Shown: piece after piece, positions 5,470-60,829 of the stretch
Layout of the letters: each line of letters starts with the position of its first letter
How positions within the stretch are numbered: the first letter of the stretch is position 1
From: a virus
Taxonomy: Duplodnaviria; Caudoviricetes
DNA length: 64,000 nucleotides
Reading direction: 5' to 3' (one strand)
Virus record (IMG/VR): IMGVR_UViG_3300032318_000186
Span: 660-64,659 of that record
Position numbers and translations under genes: made by a program
Notes under the pieces: model-generated
Told to the model about the DNA's origin: nothing
The model's input: the letters and a program-made list of their open reading frames with translations, nothing else
Databases searched by the model: none

Positions 5470-7020
5470 TTGCAAATCATAGATAACAAGGCGTTGCTAC
5501 TTAAAGTACGTGACCCAAACCGCATTACCACAGTAATACCAAAGAGTAGAGTTTTAGAAGACGGCAGAGTGCTAGTTAAGTGGGGGCTAGACGAAGCGCA
5601 AGTATTAAAAAACCTTAAATACAAAGACGTACCGTCTCCAATCCGTGCTAACTATAATTGGCCTGGGTTATATAAACCGTTTGACCACCAGCGTACTACT
5701 TCCGAGTTTCTAACTCTGCATCGTCGGGCATTTTGTTTTAACGAGCAAGGCACAGGCAAGACAGGCTCGGTTATATGGGCGGCAGATTATCTAATGAACA
5801 TTGGAGTTATTAAACGTGTTTTAGTTTTGTGTCCATTATCTATCATGCAATCGGCTTGGCAAAACGACCTATTTAGATTTGCTATGCACAGGACGACAGC
5901 GATAGCCCATAGCTATTCAAGAGAAAAAAGAATCCAAGCAGTTCAAAGTGATGCCGAGTTTGTTATCTGTAACTACGACGGGCTTGGAATTATTAGGGAT
6001 ACTGTAATAGAAGAAGACTTTGATCTAATAGTTATTGACGAAGCTAACGCATATAAGACGGTATCTACAACACGTTGGAAAACCCTTAACTCAATTATTA
6101 AACCTAAGACTTGGCTATGGATGTTAACAGGTACACCAGCTTCACAGTCTCCAACAGATGCGTATGGCTTAGCACGGTTAATTAACCCTCAAGGAGTTCC
6201 AAGATTCTATGGTTCTTTCCGAGACATGGTTATGTATAAGTTGACCCAATTCAAATGGGTTCCAAAACCTAATTCAGAAAAGGTAGTCCACACAGTGTTG
6301 CAACCTGCAATACGTTTTACAAAAGACGAATGCCTAGATTTACCTGAAATGACTTATACCACTAGGGATGTACCGCTAACCGCACAGCAAGAAAAATACT
6401 ACGAAATTATCCGTAAGAATATGTTAGCTGTTGCCGCAGGGGAAGAAATTACAACCGTAAATGCCGCCGCAAACTTGAATAAATTACTCCAGCTTTCATG
6501 TGGCGCAGTCTATTCGGATAGTGGAGAGGTAGTTGAATTTGATGCCTCTAATAGAATCAATGCGTTAAAAGAAGTGATTGACGAGGCTAGTCACAAGGTG
6601 TTAATATTTGTACCCTACCGCCATGCTATTGAGATTGTTACAGAAGAATTGAAAAGATCAGGGTACACCGCAGAAATTATAAATGGCTCAGTCTCAGCAG
6701 GTAATCGCACAGACATCTTTGCTCGTTTCCAAAACGACACCAACCCTAAAGTTCTTGTAATCCAACCACAAGCCGCCGCACACGGAGTCACACTAACTGC
6801 GGCTAATGTAGTGGTATGGTTTTCCCCTATTACTTCAGTTGAAACCTATCTGCAAGCTAATGCTAGGGTACATAGAGCAGGACAACACAACCCTTGCACC
6901 GTAGTTCACTTACAGGGGTCCCCCGTTGAAAAGAAAATGTATAAGATGTTGCAAGGAAAGGTAGACATACATACAAAAATGATTGACCTTTATAAAAATA
7001 TAATTGAAGATGACTCTTGA
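5470..7020 (+). CDS. SNF2-family helicase
   Basis: QGTGKT, DEAN (Walker B), LTGTP, HGVTLT, QANARVHRAGQ. Probable TTG start after GGAG at 5460. Confidence 0.9.
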   Translation: MQIIDNKALLLKVRDPNRITTVIPKSRVLEDGRVLVKWGLDEAQVLKNLKYKDVPSPIRANYNWPGLYKPFDHQRTTSEFLTLHRRAFCFNEQGTGKTGSVIWAADYLMNIGVIKRVLVLCPLSIMQSAWQNDLFRFAMHRTTAIAHSYSREKRIQAVQSDAEFVICNYDGLGIIRDTVIEEDFDLIVIDEANAYKTVSTTRWKTLNSIIKPKTWLWMLTGTPASQSPTDAYGLARLINPQGVPRFYGSFRDMVMYKLTQFKWVPKPNSEKVVHTVLQPAIRFTKDECLDLPEMTYTTRDVPLTAQQEKYYEIIRKNMLAVAAGEEITTVNAAANLNKLLQLSCGAVYSDSGEVVEFDASNRINALKEVIDEASHKVLIFVPYRHAIEIVTEELKRSGYTAEIINGSVSAGNRTDIFARFQNDTNPKVLVIQPQAAAHGVTLTAANVVVWFSPITSVETYLQANARVHRAGQHNPCTVVHLQGSPVEKKMYKMLQGKVDIHTKMIDLYKNIIEDDS

Positions 7021-50915: not shown

Positions 50916-51402
50916 TATATGTTTAGATTTTGCAGTTTTTTATACATATGGGTATCAATATGTATACGCAATTAACACTTATAGGTATCAGTTTTATTAA
51001 AGTTTCATGCACTTACGTCACATGTTTGCACGAGTTTCTTTTTTAAAATCATAGGGTTATAGCGTTATTTTTTAGAGGCTGGTTTTGTGTTTCTAATTTA
51101 TAAAGATGTTGTAGGACACACTTAAGTCCAAAATTCTCTACAAAACAAAATCAAAAAATATATACCCCCCGGGGGTGTTTGCACGGAAACATAAGGGGGC
51201 CTAATCCTAGGAAAAACCCTAGTCCCAAGATGGGATAAAAAATATACCCCCCCCCTCTTAAAATTTTAAAAAATCATAATCGTTTGAGCACAATACAGCA
51301 CAAGGTGCGAGCGGGTCCCATCAGCGTCAAATGTGGTCATGGGGGGTCAAAGAATCGGCGGATATAAAAAAGCCATACTGTCAGACATTATTCAAATATC
51401 TA

Positions 51403-51431
51403 TTGACATAGCGCCATGTTAAGTTCATAAT
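51403..51431 (+). promoter_or_regulatory. Early promoter TTGACA-17-CATAAT
   Basis: Near-consensus; palindrome copy just upstream of the -35. Confidence 0.8.
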
Positions 51432-51489
51432 GGATTCATCAGTTCAGCAGGCGTTTGACTTGTTGCTGATTCCTACTAGGAGATTTAAA

Positions 51490-51972
51490 ATGACTTTAAA
51501 ATTATCTAATCAAGAGCAGTTGGCAGTTGAAGTTGCGAATGGTATCGTTGCAGTTGGTACGGCTCAGGCTAGTATTGACAAGGCTTGCCAAGCAATTAAA
51601 AAGGCTCGCAAGGGTAAGCCACTTGGTACAGTTGCAAAGGGTTGTGCAGTAATGATTCGCTTTACTGAAGTATTGTTGAAAGCTGGTAAATCGGAGCAGA
51701 CTGTTAAGAACTATGCGACAGCGTTCCGCAAAGCAGTAAATGATGGTGTTCCATTCAGCATGAATGCTTATCGTGCTAAGGCTTCTAAGGGTAGTCAAGC
51801 TGGCAAAACCAGCAACACTACTGGAGTGAAGTTCAAAGGTGATGCAAAGCTGGAAGATATCGTTAAGGGTTTGCGTACCATGTTTAACAAGTTCAAAGAA
51901 AACGATAAGACAGCGAGTTTAGCGTCTTACCTGATTGATGCGCTTGATGATTTCGAAGGCGATATCAAGTAA
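51490..51972 (+). CDS. First early gene, basic hypothetical protein
   Basis: AGGAG RBS; own promoter and terminator. Confidence 0.75.
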   Translation: MTLKLSNQEQLAVEVANGIVAVGTAQASIDKACQAIKKARKGKPLGTVAKGCAVMIRFTEVLLKAGKSEQTVKNYATAFRKAVNDGVPFSMNAYRAKASKGSQAGKTSNTTGVKFKGDAKLEDIVKGLRTMFNKFKENDKTASLASYLIDALDDFEGDIK

Positions 51973-51993
51973 TACCAGCATCACCAGCACAGA

Positions 51994-52021
51994 ACCCCAC
52001 TCAAAAGGTGGGGTTTTTTTT
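51994..52021 (+). terminator. Intrinsic terminator
   Basis: ACCCCAC-TCAAAAG-GTGGGGT followed by a T-run. Confidence 0.9.
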
Positions 52022-52189
52022 CGCCCATTTTTTGGGAACTGGTGTCATCTAGGTCGGCGAAGCCGACGGGTTTAAATTCTTTTTGCTCTTGCTTTTTCTG
52101 TCCGAAGGGCGTGATGAGTGGCGGTCAGCGAGGCACAAGATAGGTTGGCGAAGCCAATGAAATACTGTCAGACAGTACGAAACGAGCAA

Positions 52190-52615
52190 TGTTCACTCTG
52201 TTCACTCATGTTCACTCAGCAGTGAACAAACTTTTGTTGCGTTGCACACCTCGCAAACCCTTGTTTTGTATACCTTTTCTTTCTTTCTTTCTATAATAAT
52301 AATACTAATGTTCACTTGTTCACTCTATTTTAAAATGTATGTCGGGGTAAATTTTCCTAACTTGACAATGTAAAGTTTTAATACTGTCAGACAGTACGAG
52401 AAAGTTCTTTTTCTTAGGTGTCATACTTTTGGTTTTGAGTGAACATTCGGGCGCTAAATGCTGTAACCTATTGAACCAATTAGGAAATACCTTGTTCGTT
52501 GATGAGTGAACATTGCTGAACTTAGTGAACATTTGAGTGAACAAAGCCTACAAGACTTGACAGAGTAAAGGTAGATGGGAAATAGAAAAAGATGTTGTGA
52601 GAATGTGAGTGAACA
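52190..52615. repeat. Iteron-like (G)AGTGAACA array, 11 copies in two inverted arms; candidate replication origin
   Basis: Reverse copies at 52190, 52199, 52209, 52309, 52317; forward copies at 52221, 52437, 52504, 52524, 52535, 52607. Confidence 0.75.
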
Positions 52616-52693
52616 AACCCAATACTGTCAGACAGTATTCCACCCCGAAGTTGAAACCAGTTTTCTGAAGAACCCCAAGCGAGGTCTAGCCTA

Positions 52694-52722
52694 TTGACAC
52701 AGGGTTATAATAGTGTTATAAT
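52694..52722 (+). promoter_or_regulatory. Perfect sigma70 promoter TTGACA-17-TATAAT with extended TG
   Basis: Exact consensus. Confidence 0.9.
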
Positions 52723-52728
52723 AGAGAG

Positions 52729-53290
52729 GTAGAGTCGAGGAATGGTCGTGTTCGAACCAAACCGAAACCAAATACTGTCAGACAGTACCGATAGTATCGT
52801 TCTTTAAAAACTTGTTAAATGCCACGCACAAGCGTGGTGCAGAGTAGGCGTAGGGTGCAGTTATTTCCAAGCTAAGGTTGTGGGAATACAAACCACTATA
52901 AGTAAAAAGCACAGCGTAATGGTTGAAGGGCTAGATACTTAGCCCGAGGTAATCGAGTAGTGTGAAGTGATTGATAGCGCAAGGCGAAGTGCCGACTAAT
53001 CATGATGAACCATAAAAAGAGCAAGCGTGTTAGAACCAACAAACTAAAATAGCGAATCCCGAGCAGTACCTCTGTGGTAGTAGATTGATGTGGAATAGGT
53101 TAGGGTTTATTAACTTAACTGGGCGAAATACTGTCAGACAGTATCAGAGCCTTCAAAACCCCAAGCCGTTCGACCACACGCATCAATACCTACCCATGCC
53201 CGAACCCCCCACAGGAACTGCGACAAACTAGCAGAGGGCAAACAAACAAATAGAAGATTCATAGGTCAGGTTGATCTCGGTCAGCCTGCC
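52729..53290 (+). ncRNA. Candidate large structured non-coding RNA
   Basis: No credible ORF; many nested helices; closing hairpin at 53267-53288. Confidence 0.55.
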
Positions 53291-53323
53291 CGCTTGAGTT
53301 TTTTAACCACGAAAGGAGAAGTT

Positions 53324-53500
53324 GTGAATGTAATTAAACTGTATCGAAACCCTAATAAGCCCGAGTTCATGGCTTTGATTTGTCAGGTTGGTGACGAAAT
53401 ATTGGTCAATTACCCGATAGATATTAGGTATGGTAAACGCACCGCAAGGTGGTTCAATGTCAACGAAGTTTATATAGATTGGATAAGGGAGTTTAAATGA
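53324..53500 (+). CDS. Small hypothetical protein
   Basis: GTG start after AAGGAG. Confidence 0.65.
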   Translation: MNVIKLYRNPNKPEFMALICQVGDEILVNYPIDIRYGKRTARWFNVNEVYIDWIREFK

Positions 53501-53598
53501 AAGAGTTAATGGAAATAGTAGTTTGGTCGGTCATAGGTGTTTTCACCTATGTATTTATTATTGCGTTAAATCATACTATTTGGGAGGTATTGAAATGA
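53497..53598 (+). CDS. 33-aa single-TM peptide
   Basis: Read by hand; ATGA overlaps at both ends. Confidence 0.55.
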   Translation: MKELMEIVVWSVIGVFTYVFIIALNHTIWEVLK

Positions 53599-53801
53599 GA
53601 AAAGGAAACAGTAACAAGGCACTATTTAAAAAGATGTTGGGGGATTCAATAGACCAAGCGTTTGTGATTAGTGCTATCGAGTCATACTGTCAGACAGTAT
53701 TGGAAGACGATACTGATTGGGGAAAAACCCTAATAAACAAGGAGTTATGGCAAGTGATTGCTACACGAAACCTAAAAACCATAGAGGAGCATTACAAATG
53801 A
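53595..53801 (+). CDS. Small hypothetical protein
   Basis: GGAGG RBS. Confidence 0.7.
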   Translation: MRKGNSNKALFKKMLGDSIDQAFVISAIESYCQTVLEDDTDWGKTLINKELWQVIATRNLKTIEEHYK

Positions 53802-54004
53802 AGAATATATGTAGATGTTGCGGAGACGAGTACCCCGAGGGGAGGTGGAAGCTAGGCTATAAGTTTTGCCTAGATTGTGGGGTAGACATAGCCGAGGCAG
53901 TAACCAAGGGCTTTACAGTAGCCATACCATTCAACAAGGGTGCGTATCAGTATATCCATAACCCAAAAGAGTTAGCGACAACCAACCCCAAGAGGACAAC
54001 ATGA
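53798..54004 (+). CDS. DksA/TraR-like C4 zinc-finger protein
   Basis: CRCCGDEYPEGRWKLGYKFCLDC. Confidence 0.6.
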   Translation: MKNICRCCGDEYPEGRWKLGYKFCLDCGVDIAEAVTKGFTVAIPFNKGAYQYIHNPKELATTNPKRTT

Positions 54005-54279
54005 GAAATCCATACCAACATAGGGCTGAGATTAAAGACCCTTACATGACCTTGCAGGAAATTGCCGACATGATGGGCATGAGTCGGGAGAGGGTCAGAC
54101 AGATTGAGGTACGGGCGCTGGGTAAGGTTAAGCAAGAACTATTTAAGCGAGGGATAACGGCTGAGGATTTTTTCTCTACCCTTAAATACATGAAGCCGAT
54201 TAAGCGTAACCCTAACGAAATACTGTCAGACAGTACGGACTACGAACTAATTGAACCTGAAAGGAATGAAGATGAATGA
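54001..54279 (+). CDS. Sigma70 region-4-like HTH protein
   Basis: MTLQEIADMMGMSRERVRQIEVRALGKVK. Confidence 0.85.
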   Translation: MRNPYQHRAEIKDPYMTLQEIADMMGMSRERVRQIEVRALGKVKQELFKRGITAEDFFSTLKYMKPIKRNPNEILSDSTDYELIEPERNEDE

Positions 54280-54451
54280 GTGCTATGTTTTTGTTTTGTG
54301 CGATACCTTTACAGGTATGGAGTTTATGAGGACAGAAGTAGACGAGCCTAAACCTCAAATAGACGCTGAGTTTTGGGATAGGTTTATGCAAGGTGATTGC
54401 CTGATGGAATATAGGGGCAAGGTATATGACGAGGAGGAAGAAAATGATTAA
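54272..54451 (+). CDS. Small acidic protein
   Basis: Coupled ORF. Confidence 0.6.
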   Translation: MNECYVFVLCDTFTGMEFMRTEVDEPKPQIDAEFWDRFMQGDCLMEYRGKVYDEEEEND

Positions 54452-54698
54452 GTGTACCGAGTATCGCATGGGTAAACCCCGAACAATGAGGGACAAACCT
54501 CTCAAAATGCCACGAGCCAATGACCCAGTATATCTAGGAGCTAAGCTAATAAAGGCTAACTCTACGCAGGAAAGACGGCAACTGGTCTCAATCGCAATGG
54601 GCGACATTTTTTATGCGTTTGGGGTAGTCAGGAAGCCTTGGAAAGATTGGCTAACCTATGAAGAAAACATGAACGAACCAAATGGAGAAAGAGCATGA
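54444..54698 (+). CDS. Small hypothetical protein
   Basis: GGAGG RBS. Confidence 0.65.
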   Translation: MIKCTEYRMGKPRTMRDKPLKMPRANDPVYLGAKLIKANSTQERRQLVSIAMGDIFYAFGVVRKPWKDWLTYEENMNEPNGERA

Positions 54699-54904
54699 GA
54701 ACACCAATGGAGAAAAACTTACAACCAATCCCTAGAACCTTATCAGAGGCGAACCGAGATGCAAAGTACGCTTGTGCTATTCAGACTTTTAGAAGTGATG
54801 TAAAGCTGACATGGGATTTTTTATGTAATGCCTTTTTAGGTGCGTTATGGGTAACAGTAGCAATAGGTGGTATAGCAGGTGTAGTTTATATGTTTTTTAA
54901 ATAA
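54695..54904 (+). CDS. Small protein with C-terminal TM helix
   Basis: ATGA overlap; hydrophobic tail. Confidence 0.65.
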   Translation: MRTPMEKNLQPIPRTLSEANRDAKYACAIQTFRSDVKLTWDFLCNAFLGALWVTVAIGGIAGVVYMFFK

Positions 54905-54947
54905 CCAATACTGTCAGACAGTATTACAACATCTTTAGGAGAATCAA

Positions 54948-55901
54948 ATGAGTTTAGAAAAGTTCGAGCATTTCAAGCAACGCTTTATCAACACCGCACC
55001 CATCCGTGGTCGGGCAGTAGAGTGCAGACCAATCGGGCAAAGGCGCAGAGATTGGGAACAGATAGTCAAGCGTTACATTGTGGAAGAGGGCGCACTAGAT
55101 GTGGAGGGTGGAGAGGCATACGGCGCACACTTGTACCAAACTGACTGCGTTATGTATCTATCTGATGGGGCTATCCATGTAGCGACTGATGGGTATGAAA
55201 CACCAACAACGGCTGAGTTTATCGGGAGATACTTACCTCGGACAATGCGTTGTTATAAGAAATACAACAAGATATGGGTCGAATACAAAGGTCAGTCGTA
55301 TGTATTGGACAACAAGAAACCAACAGTATTTCGCTATGTCAAATCAGACGATGCCTACTATATTGAGAACCCGATCAAGTTAGAGCAAAAGGTAATCGAC
55401 AGAACCAAGATGAAAACGGCTAGGGAAAAGCTAACACCATTCCGTAACTATGCCAAGATCATGCTCAAACTATCTGATGGGTGGCTGAGTAATGAGTTAG
55501 TAGACCAACACGCAACAGGCGAGGCTGATTACTATGGTCGCAAGTCTTATGAGTTTGATGGTACGACATATGACAGATGGGCGCTTACAGGTTCGGTTAG
55601 TGCAAAGATTGCAGGCGAGTTGTACGAGGCTATGTGTAACGCAACGGAAGAACAATTCCCAAAACTTCTTTGCATAATCTGTGCGAGTAGTAGCTATAAA
55701 GAGAGTCGCATCTGTAAAACGGAACAGGTAGAACGCACCGACTATCAAGGCAACAAACATATGGAACAAGTAAACATTCGTGAGCATCAGTATGACTACA
55801 AGAGTGTGGACAATCGCATTAACTATTTCATTAAGCAAGTAGCTGATGTGCATACAACAAGAGAAGTAGCGTTAGGTGTAGTTGCTACGAATTGCTTGTA
55901 A
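54948..55901 (+). CDS. Hypothetical early protein (317 aa)
   Basis: AGGAG RBS; long ORF. Confidence 0.8.
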   Translation: MSLEKFEHFKQRFINTAPIRGRAVECRPIGQRRRDWEQIVKRYIVEEGALDVEGGEAYGAHLYQTDCVMYLSDGAIHVATDGYETPTTAEFIGRYLPRTMRCYKKYNKIWVEYKGQSYVLDNKKPTVFRYVKSDDAYYIENPIKLEQKVIDRTKMKTAREKLTPFRNYAKIMLKLSDGWLSNELVDQHATGEADYYGRKSYEFDGTTYDRWALTGSVSAKIAGELYEAMCNATEEQFPKLLCIICASSSYKESRICKTEQVERTDYQGNKHMEQVNIREHQYDYKSVDNRINYFIKQVADVHTTREVALGVVATNCL

Positions 55902-55912
55902 GTGTTGGGGTA

Positions 55913-55941
55913 TTGACACAGAGGTAGTATAGCGGTATAAT
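55913..55941 (+). promoter_or_regulatory. Perfect sigma70 promoter TTGACA-17-TATAAT
   Basis: Exact consensus; palindrome at 55980 in the leader. Confidence 0.9.
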
Positions 55942-56029
55942 AGAGGTATAAGTAGTAGAAGTATGTAGTCGTAGCCTAATACTGTCAGACAGTATTGGGT
56001 TTTTTTAATTTTAAATCAAGGAGAAGTAT

Positions 56030-57148
56030 ATGAGTATCAAGTTCGGTAGTTCTTTAACTCTCAACGAGTTTGCAAATGCAATATCAGTAGTGGGTTCAGA
56101 TGTAACCATCATTGGTCAGGGTGAGCCAGGAATTGGCAAGAGTTCTATGCTCAAGGCAGTAGCCAAGCGTTACCCCGACTATGAGGTAGCCTACATTGAT
56201 TGCACCCTGTTAGACCTAGGTGACTTTGCGCTTCCGTATACGGAGGAGGTGGTTCTTGAGAAACTGGCATCAACTCTCAAAGTAACTAAGTTCGCACCAA
56301 ACGCAAGGTTTAAATTCCAATCGGGTAAGCCTGTAATCGTTATGCTTGACGAGATAGGCAAGGCAATGAAAGCGGTTAAGAATGTGTTGCTCACGCTGAT
56401 GTTAGAAAAGCGTATCGGTGATATGTCTTTGCCCGAGGGTTCGATTGTGTTCGGTACAACTAACCTTGCTACTGATGGGGTTGGTGATTCACTCGAGGCT
56501 CATGCTCGTAATCGTGTTTGCTTTGTGACTGTGCGTAAACCACACGCAGGCTTCCAAGCTGACGGCTCTATTGACTCTGACTCTTGGGGTGCGTGGGCTG
56601 TGGAGAATGATATTGCTCCCGAGGTATTGGCATGGGTTAAGCAATTTCCTCATGCTTTGGAGTCTTATACCGACCCTGCTCAAAAAGATAATCTATACAT
56701 CTTTAACCCAACTCGGGCAGGACAGTCAGCGTTCGTTACCCCTCGTTCACTCGAGAAGGCTAGTCATATTGCTAGAAAGCGTGCAGACTTAGGCGATGGT
56801 GTAACTATCTCGGCATTGGCAGGCACAATCGGTGAGAGTGCGGCTCGTGATATGCAAGCGTTCTTTACTGTGGTGGACAAGCTACCTACATGGGAGGCTA
56901 TATGTAATTCACCTAGTACGGCTAAAGTACCTGATGATGCGGTAGCTAAATGTATCTTGACTTTCTCAGCTATTACTCGGGTTGACAAGGACACGCTACC
57001 TAAGTGGCTCAAGTACGCAGACCGATTGGATAAAGAATTACAAGCGTTGTTTGCCCGTTCAATCGTGAAGTCTAGTACCAAGCAAGCTATGGCGGTATCT
57101 AACAAGGAGTTTGTCAAATGGGCGACAGACAATCAGTGGTTGTTTTAA
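56030..57148 (+). CDS. MoxR-like AAA+ ATPase
   Basis: GEPGIGKS, MLDEIGKA, GTTN, ARNR, TPRS. Confidence 0.85.
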   Translation: MSIKFGSSLTLNEFANAISVVGSDVTIIGQGEPGIGKSSMLKAVAKRYPDYEVAYIDCTLLDLGDFALPYTEEVVLEKLASTLKVTKFAPNARFKFQSGKPVIVMLDEIGKAMKAVKNVLLTLMLEKRIGDMSLPEGSIVFGTTNLATDGVGDSLEAHARNRVCFVTVRKPHAGFQADGSIDSDSWGAWAVENDIAPEVLAWVKQFPHALESYTDPAQKDNLYIFNPTRAGQSAFVTPRSLEKASHIARKRADLGDGVTISALAGTIGESAARDMQAFFTVVDKLPTWEAICNSPSTAKVPDDAVAKCILTFSAITRVDKDTLPKWLKYADRLDKELQALFARSIVKSSTKQAMAVSNKEFVKWATDNQWLF

Positions 57149-57175
57149 ATACTGTCAGACAGTATTGGGGGATAT

Positions 57176-57376
57176 ATGAAACTTAAATGGGTAGAACTAC
57201 ATGGAATGAAATATGTAGAGGACTATGAAGATGACTATACCCATTGTGCTAGGTGTGCATTTTATGACGATGAGTTTAATTCGTATTGCAAACAAGTCTC
57301 ATGTGCAAATCATGTTTATGTCCCCCTCGAACCACAACATATACCAAACTTAAGAAAGGTAGGTAGAAAATTATGA
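57176..57376 (+). CDS. Small Cys-containing protein
   Basis: HCARCAFY...YCKQVSC. Confidence 0.65.
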   Translation: MKLKWVELHGMKYVEDYEDDYTHCARCAFYDDEFNSYCKQVSCANHVYVPLEPQHIPNLRKVGRKL

Positions 57377-58554
57377 CTAGATTAACAGCAGAACAACGAG
57401 TGCAGAAGTCTCATGTGGCATTGATGAATGACCCTAAATACTGCCTTTACTCGGGTATCTTCATGCTAGGTAAGACCGAGGTGAGTGATGAGATTCCTAC
57501 TGCCTGTACCGATGGGCGTAACACTTACTATGGTCGTAAGTTTGTAGACAAGCTAAAAGATTCTGATTTGAAGGGCTTGATACTTCATGAGAATCTACAC
57601 AAGGCTTTCCGTCATACAACTGTATGGAAACATCTTTACAAACAGAACCCACAACTAGCGAACATGGCTTGTGACTTTGTTATTAACTTAATGATTCACG
57701 ACTCAGACCCACAAGGCGCAATGGTATCTCTACCTGAAGGTGGTTGCTTAGATGAGAAGTATCGTGGCATGGATGCAGGCGAGGTATTTCGTTTACTTAA
57801 ACAAGAGGGGGGTAAAGGTGGAAAAGGCAATGGTAGTGGCGAGGATGAACAAGAGGGTGGGCAGGGCTTTGACGAGCATGATTGGGAAAGTGCCGATGCC
57901 TTGTCAGAAGATGAGAAACAAGCATTGGCTCGTGAAGTCGATCAAGCCTTAAGACAGGGCGCACTACTGGCAGGCAAACTCAACGGCAATGTCCCTCGTG
58001 AGATTACTGAGGCTATGGAAGCTAAGGTTAATTGGAAAGAAGTATTGAGAGACTTTGTAAACGCTATCTGCAATGACAAGGACAACTCTACATGGCGCAG
58101 ACCAAATCGTAGGTGGGTAGATCAGAATGTCTATATGCCTAGCGCAATCGGTGAGGCAGTAGGTCGTATTGTGGTGGCTATTGATACATCAGGCTCTATT
58201 GGTGATGAGCAGATCGGGCAGTTCTTAGGCGAGTTAGTGTCTATCTGTAATCATGTTCAGCCCGAGGGTATTGACTTGATGTATTGGGATACCGAGATAT
58301 GCGCTCATGAGAAGTATGACCGAGGAGACTATGAGGCTATCTTGTCATCTACTAAACCTGCGGGGGGTGGTGGTACGAGTGCCGAATGTATTCCTATATA
58401 CATTGCAGAACACAAGCTAAACCCTGAGTGTGTGATTGTTCTAACTGACGGCTACATTGGCGGTTGGGGCGATTGGAAGCACCCAGTATTTTGGGGTATT
58501 ACAACTAACCAAGTCGCACCATGTGGTGTGTCTGTAAAAATTGAGGAGAATTAA
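57373..58554 (+). CDS. HExxH metallopeptidase-like plus VWA domain protein (DUF2201-like)
   Basis: TACTDG, LHENLH; MIDAS IDTSGS, GGGT, LTDG. Confidence 0.85.
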   Translation: MTRLTAEQRVQKSHVALMNDPKYCLYSGIFMLGKTEVSDEIPTACTDGRNTYYGRKFVDKLKDSDLKGLILHENLHKAFRHTTVWKHLYKQNPQLANMACDFVINLMIHDSDPQGAMVSLPEGGCLDEKYRGMDAGEVFRLLKQEGGKGGKGNGSGEDEQEGGQGFDEHDWESADALSEDEKQALAREVDQALRQGALLAGKLNGNVPREITEAMEAKVNWKEVLRDFVNAICNDKDNSTWRRPNRRWVDQNVYMPSAIGEAVGRIVVAIDTSGSIGDEQIGQFLGELVSICNHVQPEGIDLMYWDTEICAHEKYDRGDYEAILSSTKPAGGGGTSAECIPIYIAEHKLNPECVIVLTDGYIGGWGDWKHPVFWGITTNQVAPCGVSVKIEEN

Positions 58555-58555
58555 G

Positions 58556-58762
58556 ATGGCGATAGCTAGAGGATTTGAAACGCTGATGTTAAAGACAGAA
58601 GCAAAAAAGAAGTTTTTAGATGCAAAGAAGAAGATGGAATCGCAGTTAGGTGTAACTCTTACGCACTCAAATGCTATGGAGGTGATGGCTGACCAAATAC
58701 TGTCAGACAGTACGAAGTTACGATTAAGGATTGTCCCACTAACACAAGGAGAAGAATCATGA
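58556..58762 (+). CDS. Small putative DNA-binding protein
   Basis: Coupled ORF; RHH-like helical pattern. Confidence 0.6.
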   Translation: MAIARGFETLMLKTEAKKKFLDAKKKMESQLGVTLTHSNAMEVMADQILSDSTKLRLRIVPLTQGEES

Positions 58763-59598
58763 TTGGAAGCAACGCTATGCTAGTAGACCTAAACATTTCT
58801 ATGTGGACAGGTCGTAAGATGGATAAAAAAGTATCCGAGGAGATTGATGTAAGCAAGAGCACCAAGGCTCGGGCAGGCAACTACCACAAGAAGTTATTGG
58901 CAGGCTCGGACAAGCTAGAGAAGGTGCAGAAGATTGCTACTGCGGTGCGTGCATGGAACTATCAACATACCTTACCTTGGTCTGATGGTGGCTCACGCTT
59001 ACTACCTATGAAGTCTTTCTTTGATTACAAGGCTACGCTAGGCAACTACGAGGCGCAATACACGCAGGCGGTGGATGACTTTCTTGTAGAGTATCCGCAA
59101 CTGGTTTCAGGTTCTGCGTTTACGCTTGGTGCTTTGTTTGACCGAGGAGAGTATCCCGATGTTGAGGAATTGCGCAACAAGTTTCGTTTTAAATATGTGT
59201 TCTGTCCTGTGCCCGATGCAGGGGATTTCAGAATAGATGTTGAGGAACAGGCTAAGAACGAACTACAACAGCAATACAAAGAGTATTACGACGGCAAGTT
59301 AGCTGATGCTATGAAAGACGCATGGGATAGGTTGCATGAAACCCTTACTCATTTGAGTGATCGTATGGACTACACAGACGAGAATAAAAAGAAGTTTTGG
59401 GATTCTACTATCACCAATGCCTCTGACCTGTGTGGGTTGCTGACAAGCCTTAATATAACTAACGACCCTAAGCTAGAGACTATGCGCCAGCAACTTGAGA
59501 AAGCGTTGAATGGTGTGGATGCCTCAGACATTCGTGAAAGCGAAGCAATCCGTAGTTCGGTGAAGTCTAAGGTAGATCAAATTCTAAACATGTTTTAA
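58759..59598 (+). CDS. DUF3150-like helical protein
   Basis: LVDLNISMWTGRK.D, TLPWSDGG.RLLP, PVPDAGDFR. Confidence 0.65.
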   Translation: MIGSNAMLVDLNISMWTGRKMDKKVSEEIDVSKSTKARAGNYHKKLLAGSDKLEKVQKIATAVRAWNYQHTLPWSDGGSRLLPMKSFFDYKATLGNYEAQYTQAVDDFLVEYPQLVSGSAFTLGALFDRGEYPDVEELRNKFRFKYVFCPVPDAGDFRIDVEEQAKNELQQQYKEYYDGKLADAMKDAWDRLHETLTHLSDRMDYTDENKKKFWDSTITNASDLCGLLTSLNITNDPKLETMRQQLEKALNGVDASDIRESEAIRSSVKSKVDQILNMF

Positions 59599-59607
59599 GG
59601 AGGGTGT

Positions 59608-60024
59608 ATGGGATATCGAAGCGAGGTAGGGTTTTTTATTGAGTTTACAAAAGACCCCGAGGAGTTTATTGCCCTGATGAAAGTAGATGGGCGAGATATA
59701 TTTAAAGACTTCTTGCGGTTTATGTATGTAGAGAATTACCCCGAACCGATACTAGAAGAAGATGCGCCTGTTGGTGGGGTTCACTTTTTCCATAACCATT
59801 GGAAGTGGTACGAGGATTCTAAAAACGGCTTTATGGATTTGCTTAACATGGCTGAAAACTATGATGAGAACTTCAAAGCTAAGTTTGTTAGGACAGGGGA
59901 AGAGTCTGATGACAATGAAGAAGAGTGGTTTAACGACGACGACTATGCCTTAGAGTACCCCTATATGGTACGCAGGGTAGATACAGGAATGGACTTAAGT
60001 AAACTAAAGAAAGTGGAGGAGTAA
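59608..60024 (+). CDS. Acidic hypothetical protein
   Basis: MGYRSEV, W.KWYE, FVRTGEE.DD. Confidence 0.75.
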   Translation: MGYRSEVGFFIEFTKDPEEFIALMKVDGRDIFKDFLRFMYVENYPEPILEEDAPVGGVHFFHNHWKWYEDSKNGFMDLLNMAENYDENFKAKFVRTGEESDDNEEEWFNDDDYALEYPYMVRRVDTGMDLSKLKKVEE

Positions 60025-60025
60025 A

Positions 60026-60829
60026 ATGCTACAACTTAAAGATATAGATAAGACACAGTTAAGCGAGCCTGTGGTTGCGTTCTTAGATGCAATGGAACTT
60101 AAGCACGCTAAGAATCCGTACTGTCTGACAGTATCGGCGCATCAAAGCCAATACAAACCTGAGTTTTGGCAACTGCGCTTTCACGACGCTAGGTTCGAGG
60201 AAAACGAAGTAGAACTTGCAGGGGTGGTGGAGTGGGTCTACGGTAGCCGTAATGACAAGGAATACAAGATTACCTCACGCAAGATTCAGAACGATAGGTT
60301 CGGTCATTGGGGTAACGAGCACTCGTCTCGCAGAACTAAGGACATGAAGAAAGCCTTGAAGATTGCTATGGATACTATTGACCCCTTCCAATGGCATGAG
60401 ATATCTAATAAGGGTAGACGTAAGGCAGAGCAAGCGCATGAACAATGGAGTAATCAAGACAACAAGTTTGTATTCCCATTTAGAATCAGCCACGAGGATA
60501 TATACGAAGAAGTAAAGCATCTTGTGGAAATGGGTGTTCAGTTCAAGACCGAAGCTTTTAAAAAGTCAGCAGCAGGAATTCCAAACTACGAAGAAATGAT
60601 ACGCAAGGCGAGCATTAAACCTAAGTTCGATACTGTTATTGTGCGCCCTGACAAAACTATCTTTATCCCCGATGGTCGTGCATTAAACCCACAAGAATTT
60701 AACGACGCAGACTTACTACCTGAACAAGCCAGAAACGGTATCGCTCTTTTAAAACTTGTTGAGAAAGACACGCTACTGCCCGAGGTAGGCTATCGTGGTG
60801 GGGAAAACACCTACTTTATTTTAGTGTGA
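60026..60829 (+). CDS. Hypothetical protein
   Basis: GGAG RBS; long ORF. Confidence 0.75.
   Translation: MLQLKDIDKTQLSEPVVAFLDAMELKHAKNPYCLTVSAHQSQYKPEFWQLRFHDARFEENEVELAGVVEWVYGSRNDKEYKITSRKIQNDRFGHWGNEHSSRRTKDMKKALKIAMDTIDPFQWHEISNKGRRKAEQAHEQWSNQDNKFVFPFRISHEDIYEEVKHLVEMGVQFKTEAFKKSAAGIPNYEEMIRKASIKPKFDTVIVRPDKTIFIPDGRALNPQEFNDADLLPEQARNGIALLKLVEKDTLLPEVGYRGGENTYFILV

Follow-up and report, generated by a model that had tools for sequence, protein, structure and literature searches.

A large structured RNA family at the head of an early operon in uncultivated phages

The locus and its early promoter

A stretch of 64,000 nucleotides (referred to below as the window) from IMG/VR virus record IMGVR_UViG_3300032318_000186, comprising nearly all of a 64,659-bp record that bears direct terminal repeats, was found to carry on its + strand a region of about 595 nt without a credible open reading frame (ORF), running from a predicted transcription start near 52729 to a GTG codon at 53324. 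The structured RNA read from this region is described here. The structural genes of the virus lie on the − strand, from 11.7 to 49.6 kb, and from 51.4 kb on, across the record ends to 11.5 kb, only the + strand is used. The large + strand ORFs include a family A DNA polymerase, a DUF927 primase-helicase-like protein, an SNF2 helicase and a PD-(D/E)XK nuclease. As none of the large ORFs was found to encode a phage RNA polymerase, the host polymerase must read the long + strand block. The large terminase shares about 50–56% identity with its counterparts in Pelagibacter phages HTVC023P and HTVC027P and in phage DSL-LC04.

The promoter of the RNA (Table 1) matches the sigma70 consensus at 12 of 12 positions and has an extended −10 element, in agreement with a preliminary description of the sequence which had called it perfect. 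A −35/−10 pair of the same kind, with a variable spacer, was present in 31/31 members of the RNA family with upstream sequence. Two other consensus-grade + strand promoters were seen in the scanned stretch, at 51403 (11/12) and 55913 (12/12). Before 55913 the sole further + strand promoter-like site scored 9/12 and lies within a gene, and no other good sigma70-type promoter serves the early genes at 53324–55901. As the RNA runs without an intervening promoter into the Shine–Dalgarno (SD) sequence of the first early gene, it is by position a leader. An SD sequence and start codon were found within 60–120 nt of the last conserved motif of the RNA (M3, see below) in all but one of the 35 members examined, and the first gene after the RNA varies from lineage to lineage.

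Table 1. Features of the RNA and its immediate surroundings (positions in the window)
Feature	Position	Strand	Details
Early sigma70 promoter	52694..52722	+	−35 TTGACA 52694–52699, 17-nt spacer, TG 52714–52715, −10 TATAAT 52717–52722
5′ hairpin of transcript	52743..52759	+	in minimum-free-energy and centroid folds
Palindrome copy 1, AATACTGTCAGACAGTA	52771..52789	+	transcribed at about +43, just 5′ of boxA; place kept in near lineage
boxA-like element, CGTTCTTTAAAAA	52798..52810	+	about +70; conserved column block
P2 hairpin	52821..52838	+	GCCACGC, loop ACAA, GCGTGGT; abuts M1
Core motif M1, GTGCAGAGTAGGCGTAG	52837..52853	+	identical in all members
Variable central domain	52854..53060	+	closed by P3: GGG 52854–52856/CCC 53058–53060 and GUUAUUU/AAAUAGC
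Core motif M2, GAGCAGTACCTCTGTGG	53061..53077	+	nearly invariant in 35 sequences; can form local hairpin GCAG/CUGU
Rod	53076..53194	+	base GGTAG/CTACC, then ATTGATGTGG/CCACACGCATCAAT, then GGGTTT/AAACCC; palindrome copy 2 at apex
Palindrome copy 2	53127–53144	+	rod apex
C-rich 3′ core (M3, including GCAGAGGG)	53195..53240	+	TGCCC 53197–53201 pairs with GGGCA 53236–53240
Long interrupted terminal hairpin	53257..53304	+	inner stem 53267–53275/53280–53288; outer stem GATTCA/TGAGTT; runs into T6 53299–53304
SD AAAGGAG and first early gene	53312–53318 (SD); gene to 53500	+	GTG at 53324, 58 aa

A conserved RNA family and its fold

The first relatives were drawn in through a 160-aa protein encoded upstream of the promoter together with a palindrome that recurs in this part of the window. 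At least 10 related viral contigs kept the non-coding stretch, in blocks at 76–87% DNA identity which correspond to the promoter, a 5′ block, the 3′ half and the terminal hairpin, the middle being rich in indels. The 17-mer M1 was then used as a probe and gave further viral and metagenome contigs; these were without the window's palindrome, yet the whole layout was common to them. As an independent check, an exact scan was made with M2. This returned 23 true members, all with an unchanged M1, and the invariance of M1 is thus not an artefact of the search. Four extra matches in the M2 scan were dismissed as chance, as were 11 exact matches to the M1 17-mer in species-representative genomes, all 11 of which lacked the other motifs. 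With duplicates and chance matches removed, the family comprised about 35 non-redundant members from viral and metagenome contigs. The distant members share with the window 34–38% identity in the upstream protein, 29–39% in a 317-aa protein, about 70% in a MoxR ATPase and 57–60% in VWA and DUF3150 proteins, and on sequence grounds they belong to the same broad phage group.

The layout common to the members begins with the consensus promoter, a 5′ hairpin and boxA, after which AAAUGC leads into hairpin P2, M1 and a central domain closed by helix P3; it continues with M2, a rod, a C-rich strand with a 3-bp mini-hairpin, M3 and one or two hairpins, and ends with the SD sequence and start codon. 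In their family forms M1 is GCAGAGUAGGCGUAG, M2 is GAGCAGUAUCUCUGCGG and M3 is ACUGC followed, after a short spacer, by GCAGAGGG. M1 and M2 are identical across lineages despite an identity of 29–39% in the flanking 160-aa and 317-aa proteins and of 57–74% in the MoxR, VWA and DUF3150 proteins. The variable parts are helix interiors and tips only, and the invariant parts are the strands which the helices bring together.

The preliminary description had not recognised a known family in this RNA, and an Rfam search bore this out: no match was found for the whole window at the gathering score, for the RNA region at E ≤ 5 or for eight related loci at the gathering score. The family models of the known large structured RNAs in Rfam (GOLLD, ROOL, HEARO, OLE, raiA and others) matched neither the window nor the eight loci. 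A blastn search of 50,697 GenBank phage records, in which the queries were the window region, two distant members and two pieces of the core, recovered no homologue, the matches being short chance ones or confined to boxA, and no account of this RNA was found in literature searches. That it represents a new large structured RNA family, heading a phage early operon and absent from Rfam, is well supported.

Relative to shuffled sequences, the fold of the + strand had a z-score of −2.1, that of the − strand −0.2 and that of the rod alone −2.9. Covariation was assessed in an alignment of 17 near relatives (A3), to which the pair counts below refer. The pairing model of the preliminary description had 89% of its cells paired and 19 pairs changed on both sides; 0/500 shuffles reached the observed values, and sliding the partners reduced pairing to 33–41%. 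The consensus structure of the alignment itself was 96.7% paired with 27 pairs changed on both sides; in a control with the partners slid, pairing fell to about 40% and such pairs numbered no more than 11. It sets the base of the rod at GGUAG/CUACC and adds a CCC/GGG helix around the mini-hairpin. The cells included 88 G·U and 9 A·C combinations, from which it follows that the + strand is the folded strand. MAFFT scattered the arms of P2 over different columns, and P2 and P3 were therefore tested with anchored duplex energies and not with the 5′-core covariance model; both helices were supported family-wide.

In the 5′ half, a hairpin of differing sequence was seen by eye at the place of the 5′ hairpin in all lineages. 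P2, noted earlier as a hairpin of the window, proved to be a family-wide stem with 13 distinct arm sequences. Its duplex energy was −9.4 kcal/mol with an arm's own partner and −3.7 kcal/mol with swapped partners, and 0/2000 permutations reached the observed value; the loop carries inserts of 4–100 nt across the family, with 30–100 nt in relatives. P3, with 17 variants, gave −10.4 and −5.7 kcal/mol respectively, again with 0/2000 permutations reaching the observed value. The central domain closed by P3 varies from 14 to 230 nt. When the window was compared with its closest relative, 39 consensus pairs of this domain were found, 5 of which had changed on both sides while none was broken. The hairpins at 52862–52888 and 52928–52945 in the earlier model are kept with compensating changes, but they belong to a variable domain that is common to the closest relative only. 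The multiloop closure ATGGTT/AACCAT of the same model is broken in that relative (AAGGCA against AACCAT) and had to be given up as not conserved. GUUAUUU at 52860–52866 can pair either locally (with GGGAAUA, within 52860–52888) or distantly (with AAAUAGC, 53046–53053). In the closest relative both partners carry a change compensating its A-to-G substitution, and these two sequences give hints of two alternative conformations.

The rod starts at the final GG of M2 and is 60–155 nt long across the family. Its base stem showed changes on both sides in 12 of 15 pairs, with 94.5% of cells paired. The inner helices drawn in the preliminary description also covary in the near relatives: GTAG/CTAC together with ATTGATGT/GCATCAAT had 8 of 12 pairs changed on both sides and 91% of cells paired, and 4 of the 6 pairs of GGGTTT/AAACCC covary. 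Two covarying pairs were seen in the palindrome hairpin. The apex and the upper rod are absent from the medium and short classes. All of the pairings that had been proposed are complementary in the window, but two of them gained nothing from the comparison: CTGTGG/CCACAG was 56% paired and complete in 2/17 sequences, and is thus not conserved, and GCAGT/ACTGC is uninformative as it never varies, and it competes with local GCAG/CUGC hairpins. The five GCAG/CUGC elements in M1–M3 allow several mutually exclusive or pseudoknotted pairings, among which comparison cannot decide because the elements never vary.

On the 3′ side of the rod, the TGCCC/GGGCA helix encloses the mini-hairpin (about 53207–53215) and the pairing of CTGC 53218–53221 with GCAG 53231–53234. 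All three pairs of the mini-hairpin covary (CGU/ACG, UCU/AGA, CAU/AUG and CCU/AGG). The segment at about 53149–53210, consisting of the 3′ strand of the rod and what follows it, contains 47% C and 12% G, a C-rich, G-poor composition like that of a Rho-utilisation site within untranslated RNA. In the terminal hairpin, 6 of the 9 inner pairs covary and one outer pair is compensated in the consensus structure; the version of this hairpin drawn earlier (53267–53288) stood up equally, with 5 covarying pairs and 100% of cells paired.

The possibility was considered that the region has no function at the RNA level and is a DNA regulatory region or contains small unannotated genes. Protein-binding palindromes and iterons are dense here, and the longest ORF of the window's region (48 aa, with a TTG start and no SD sequence) overlaps the rod, similar peptides being readable in some relatives. 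As coding sequence this ORF was rejected: a 1-nt indel shifts its frame between the window and relatives, and the covariation of the mini-hairpin is non-synonymous. Each reading frame of the RNA region contains 12–14 stops, the longest ORFs across the family (25–87 aa) lie in differing frames and places, and 69/84 pairwise indels are not a multiple of three. The earlier claim that the region is free of ORFs is upheld by these counts. About 50 pairs kept by compensatory changes, and a ratio of G·U to A·C cells that singles out one strand, also speak against a function confined to DNA or protein, which is hardly credible. We regard it as almost certain that the locus encodes a real, conserved, structured RNA on the + strand, and its description as a structured non-coding RNA from a consensus early promoter is confirmed.

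boxA, palindromes and the proposed role of the leader

The boxA-like element, which the preliminary description did not mention, was found at the same place in 34/35 members, and 9/13 positions of the block are invariant across the 35 sequences while its flanks vary. In the window it reads CGUUCUUUAAAAA, the sole match to GYTCWTTRAMAA in the 64 kb, and its weight comes from this conservation, not from the pattern match alone. In the distant lineages it reads CGCTCTTTAACAA, with the full form CGCUCUUUAACAA, about 40–60 nt from the start. In E. coli the rrn boxA reads UGCUCUUUA with ACAA after it, and the lambda boxA is CGCUCUUA (PMC2724277). The distant-lineage boxA is identical to the E. coli rrn boxA with its ACAA spacer. 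Hairpins lie 5′ of boxA in all lineages, and the covarying P2 begins about 10 nt 3′ of it. In the T5-like Serratia phage Slocum (MN095770.1), 19 nt at 6642–6660, within the annotated terminal repeat, agree exactly with the boxA region of one distant member; to judge from the sequence, other lytic phages may carry boxA in their first-transcribed region too.

It is well established that boxA binds NusB/S10 and shields long untranslated transcripts from Rho. The setting in the window is a promoter at 52694, a C-rich untranslated RNA, the terminator-like hairpin at 53257–53304 and genes without a good promoter until 55913. By analogy with rRNA operons, lambda nut sites and the T7 early leader, we lean towards a role in cis, in which the RNA works as a Nus-loading, Rho-resistant leader of the early operon. 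Host sigma70 RNA polymerase would transcribe the main early operon from about 52729, starting with a structured, non-coding leader of about 575–595 nt. The hairpin-flanked boxA, about 70 nt into the transcript, would bring NusB/S10 of the host, along with NusA and NusG, to the polymerase during elongation. So modified, the polymerase would resist Rho along the long untranslated C-rich RNA and would read through the terminator-like hairpin into the early genes. P2, the P3-closed domain, the rod and the terminal hairpin would hold M1–M3 together, so that the motifs lie close to each other in the fold. The core is conserved far beyond the needs of a Nus site and probably binds a universal partner, as far as can be judged from its sequence. 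This partner might be the polymerase itself (as for the put sites of phage HK022, discussed below), a host factor or a conserved phage factor, and its binding would make antitermination more effective or else provide the released leader with a further function.

The terminal hairpin with its T6 resembles an intrinsic terminator; a simple terminator scan left 53257–53304 unflagged, since there is a gap of 9 nt between the strong stem and the T-run. In all evaluable near-lineage members the T-run ends the tail just 5′ of the SD sequence, with a gap of 2–10 nt (7 nt in the window). In the distant lineages the hairpin is kept and there is no clear T-run, which, taken over the whole family, makes a leader a more economical reading than a separate RNA ending at a terminator.

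An abundant stand-alone early non-coding RNA, ending at 53257–53304 and acting in trans, would require the early genes to be expressed by leak-through, and boxA would then only protect this RNA while it is made and folds, as happens with rRNA. The position of the terminator-like hairpin and T-run right after the fold in the near lineage agrees with this, an invariant core with variable peripheral helices resembles the design of functional RNAs that have a binding or catalytic centre, and the downstream gene changes between lineages whereas the RNA does not. The distant lineages, however, keep the core with no clear T-run after the last hairpin, and the downstream genes have no promoter of their own. 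We consider such an RNA rather unlikely.

Several observations weigh against the cis-acting leader. boxA alone may not explain passage through a hairpin-plus-U6 terminator, since rrn-type Nus complexes act chiefly on Rho-dependent and not on intrinsic terminators. With its canonical terminator directly behind the fold, the near lineage agrees equally well with a discrete RNA. A structure of 0.4–0.6 kb with three invariant motifs is also more than the task seems to need, T7 and lambda managing with far less RNA. Taken alone, the loose boxA pattern would be expected to match 0.45 times per window by chance. Finally, the boxA of the window differs from the E. coli 13-mer at 3/13 positions (2/12 from the G onward).

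It is also conceivable, though we think it unlikely, that the invariant core does something more in its own right. M1–M3 would then define a new class of large phage RNA, and boxA would merely ensure its synthesis and folding, as in rRNA; this version is put forward just as tentatively. Two forms of such an activity can be envisaged. The RNA alone could act as a larger put-like module, enabling the host polymerase to read through intrinsic terminators across the early/middle block of about 24 kb, or a released ribonucleoprotein could capture a universal host factor.

The palindrome TACTGTCAGACAGTA occurs in 13 copies between 51.4 and 60.1 kb (51376–60133). Each lineage has palindromes of its own (TACTGTCnGACAGTA in the window; CAAGTCnGACTTG, ATAGTCnGACTAT, TCACACnGTGTGA and ATACTAC..GTAGTAT in others) at corresponding places, namely ahead of the promoter, within the leader and in the gaps between early genes. 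Inside the RNA they are always at helix tips: in the P2 insert and the last hairpin in distant lineages and, in the near lineage, on the 5′ side of boxA and at the apex of the rod. The centre base on the sense strand of 121 near-lineage sites is A in 93, T in 15, C in 5 and G in 8. In the distant lineages it is mixed and unconstrained, and the idea of an orientation-specific RNA hairpin as a family rule was dropped, there being no centre-A bias in those lineages. From their sequence and placement, we take the palindromes to be DNA sites bound by a dimeric regulator particular to each lineage, located at points where a hairpin is tolerated by the RNA; they may have an additional role at the RNA level.

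The preliminary description had placed the palindrome at the tip of the rod and had suggested, among other roles, that the RNA sequesters sigma70 RNA polymerase as a 6S-like mimic or serves the palindrome-binding protein as a decoy or scaffold. The window does have a bulged rod with this protein-site palindrome at its tip, and two copies of the palindrome in the RNA. The rods of more distant lineages, by contrast, lack the apical palindrome, those lineages having their own palindromes at other helix tips and with an unconstrained centre base, and a decoy or scaffold is not sustained by this comparison. The 6S proposal finds no support either: no 6S model matched at E ≤ 5, the rod varies in length (60–155 nt) and is unconserved in its interior, with no conserved central bubble, and the conserved motifs lie outside it. 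The apical palindrome is outside the RNA core and the rod apex is not the heart of the RNA. Both proposals are very improbable.

Directly 5′ of the RNA promoter, at 52190–52615, inverted (GA)GTGAACA iteron arrays surround an AT-rich centre; they may be an origin or a regulator array. In distant lineages (L078:3541-3750, L081 and L092), GGAACA(A)/AGAACAA repeats and a conserved CCCCCAAAGTAAA block lie 5′ of the promoter; as the repeats are at the matching place, the iteron–promoter–RNA module is syntenic across the family. The RNA could accordingly be a replication transcript, activating an origin by transcription or serving as a primer like ColE1 RNA II or the T4 and T7 origin transcripts. It starts about 60 bp from this origin-like array, GAACA-core repeats precede the promoter in distant lineages too, and the size and the conserved sequence blocks are like those of RNA II. 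Transcription nevertheless heads away from the iterons, which lie 5′ of the promoter. The conserved 3′ part is C-rich and not G-rich, and a persistent RNA–DNA hybrid (R-loop) is disfavoured for an RNA of this kind. boxA, and the SD sequence and gene right after the RNA, are features of an mRNA leader. A replication transcript is quite unlikely on these grounds.

The surroundings of the leader were also inspected. A separate small unit lies upstream, at 51403–52025, with the near-consensus promoter at 51403, the 160-aa protein at 51490–51972 and a clean terminator at 52007–52025. The synteny of this protein is kept family-wide, at 34–82% identity. Protein-atlas look-ups of the 160-aa and 317-aa proteins gave no function, a weak DUF3102 lead for the 160-aa protein being the only result. 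Downstream, the second perfect (12/12) sigma70 promoter, at 55913–55994, lies 5′ of the MoxR–VWA–DUF3150 block; it has a palindrome at about +32 and no boxA after it. A reversed (T) palindrome was found about 6.2–7.3 kb 3′ of M1 in three near-lineage sequences (L114, L068 and the window) and possibly marks the end of the early unit. The gene at 54001–54279, which carries a palindrome copy at 54221, encodes a 92-aa protein with little beyond a sigma70 region 4 helix-turn-helix (Pfam, E = 3.5e-12). The palindrome halves look like inverted −35 cores (TGTCnGACA). The protein was detected in near-lineage relatives and not in distant lineages, which have other palindromes; judged by its sequence, it is a candidate for the palindrome binder.

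Comparison with known systems

Among lytic phages, antitermination through boxA has been documented in T7 and, in combination with N, in the lambdoid phages. In the present case this host signal stands at the head of a far larger, deeply conserved folded RNA, in uncultivated phages that seemingly depend on the host polymerase throughout. The persistence of invariant 15–17-nt motifs beside proteins at 30–40% identity points to a conserved molecular partner. If it is true that the core acts on RNA polymerase or another host machine, the RNA would be a new RNA-based takeover device; otherwise it is still a well-supported, Rfam-worthy new family and a clean model for Nus-dependent leaders beyond the E. 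coli phages.

The early region of T7 (A1–A3, boxA, RNase III site R0.3 and gene 0.3) resembles the present locus in that strong host-type promoters precede the early genes, boxA lies in an untranslated leader several hundred nt long, and a long hairpin stands just 5′ of the first SD sequence. The boxA behind the early host promoters of T7 is genetically proven (PMC3709561, citing Savalia 2010). The locus described here differs in its single promoter, in the position of boxA near the 5′ end, followed by 0.4–0.5 kb of covarying structure with three invariant motifs, and in showing no sequence similarity to any GenBank phage; nor was a phage RNA polymerase that could take over later found among the large ORFs.

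The E. coli rrn leader (boxB hairpin, boxA and boxC; Nus/SuhB) and lambda nutL/nutR have the same boxA core, which the distant lineages match exactly as GCUCUUUA plus ACAA. They also have hairpins directly 5′ and 3′ of boxA, and boxA is likewise ahead of a long structured untranslated RNA. In contrast to these systems, no N-like protein or boxB consensus was identified here, the window carries the boxA variant GUUCUUUAAAAA, the structured RNA is something other than rRNA, and the unit contains a terminator-like hairpin.

HK022 put is a cis-acting RNA which makes RNA polymerase terminator-resistant without protein factors; it is about 70 nt long, with two stem-loops and no boxA. Like the present RNA it lies just 3′ of an early promoter, and a similar action in cis on polymerase could explain both the invariant core and the passage of intrinsic terminators. 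The resemblance, drawn against put by description, is functional speculation only.

6S RNA is similar in being a rod-like helix with bulges, and early abundance had been proposed for the present RNA. In 6S RNA the rod is conserved, measures about 180 nt and opens into a large central bubble mimicking an open promoter, whereas the rod here is 60–155 nt long and has no conserved central bubble. GOLLD and ROOL are large phage-associated RNAs of unknown function (PMC12286853). They share with this family their size, ornate structure, phage location and discovery by comparative analysis alone; no Rfam match to any of them was found, and the present RNA has a defined promoter, boxA and a leader position.

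A parallel in arrangement is the gene-free region of phiEco32-type phages, which belong to a different phage group and share the order of host promoter, boxA, large conserved fold and gene. When this region was searched using nhmmer with alignments A1, A2 and A3 and by motif, only copies of boxA and none of M1–M3 were found, and from its sequence this boxA-bearing RNA region is analogous and not homologous to the present family. A design of this kind has not so far been described as such in phages. Together, the two non-homologous cases suggest that phages have repeatedly copied the layout of the rRNA operon, in which a strong promoter and boxA precede a large structured RNA.

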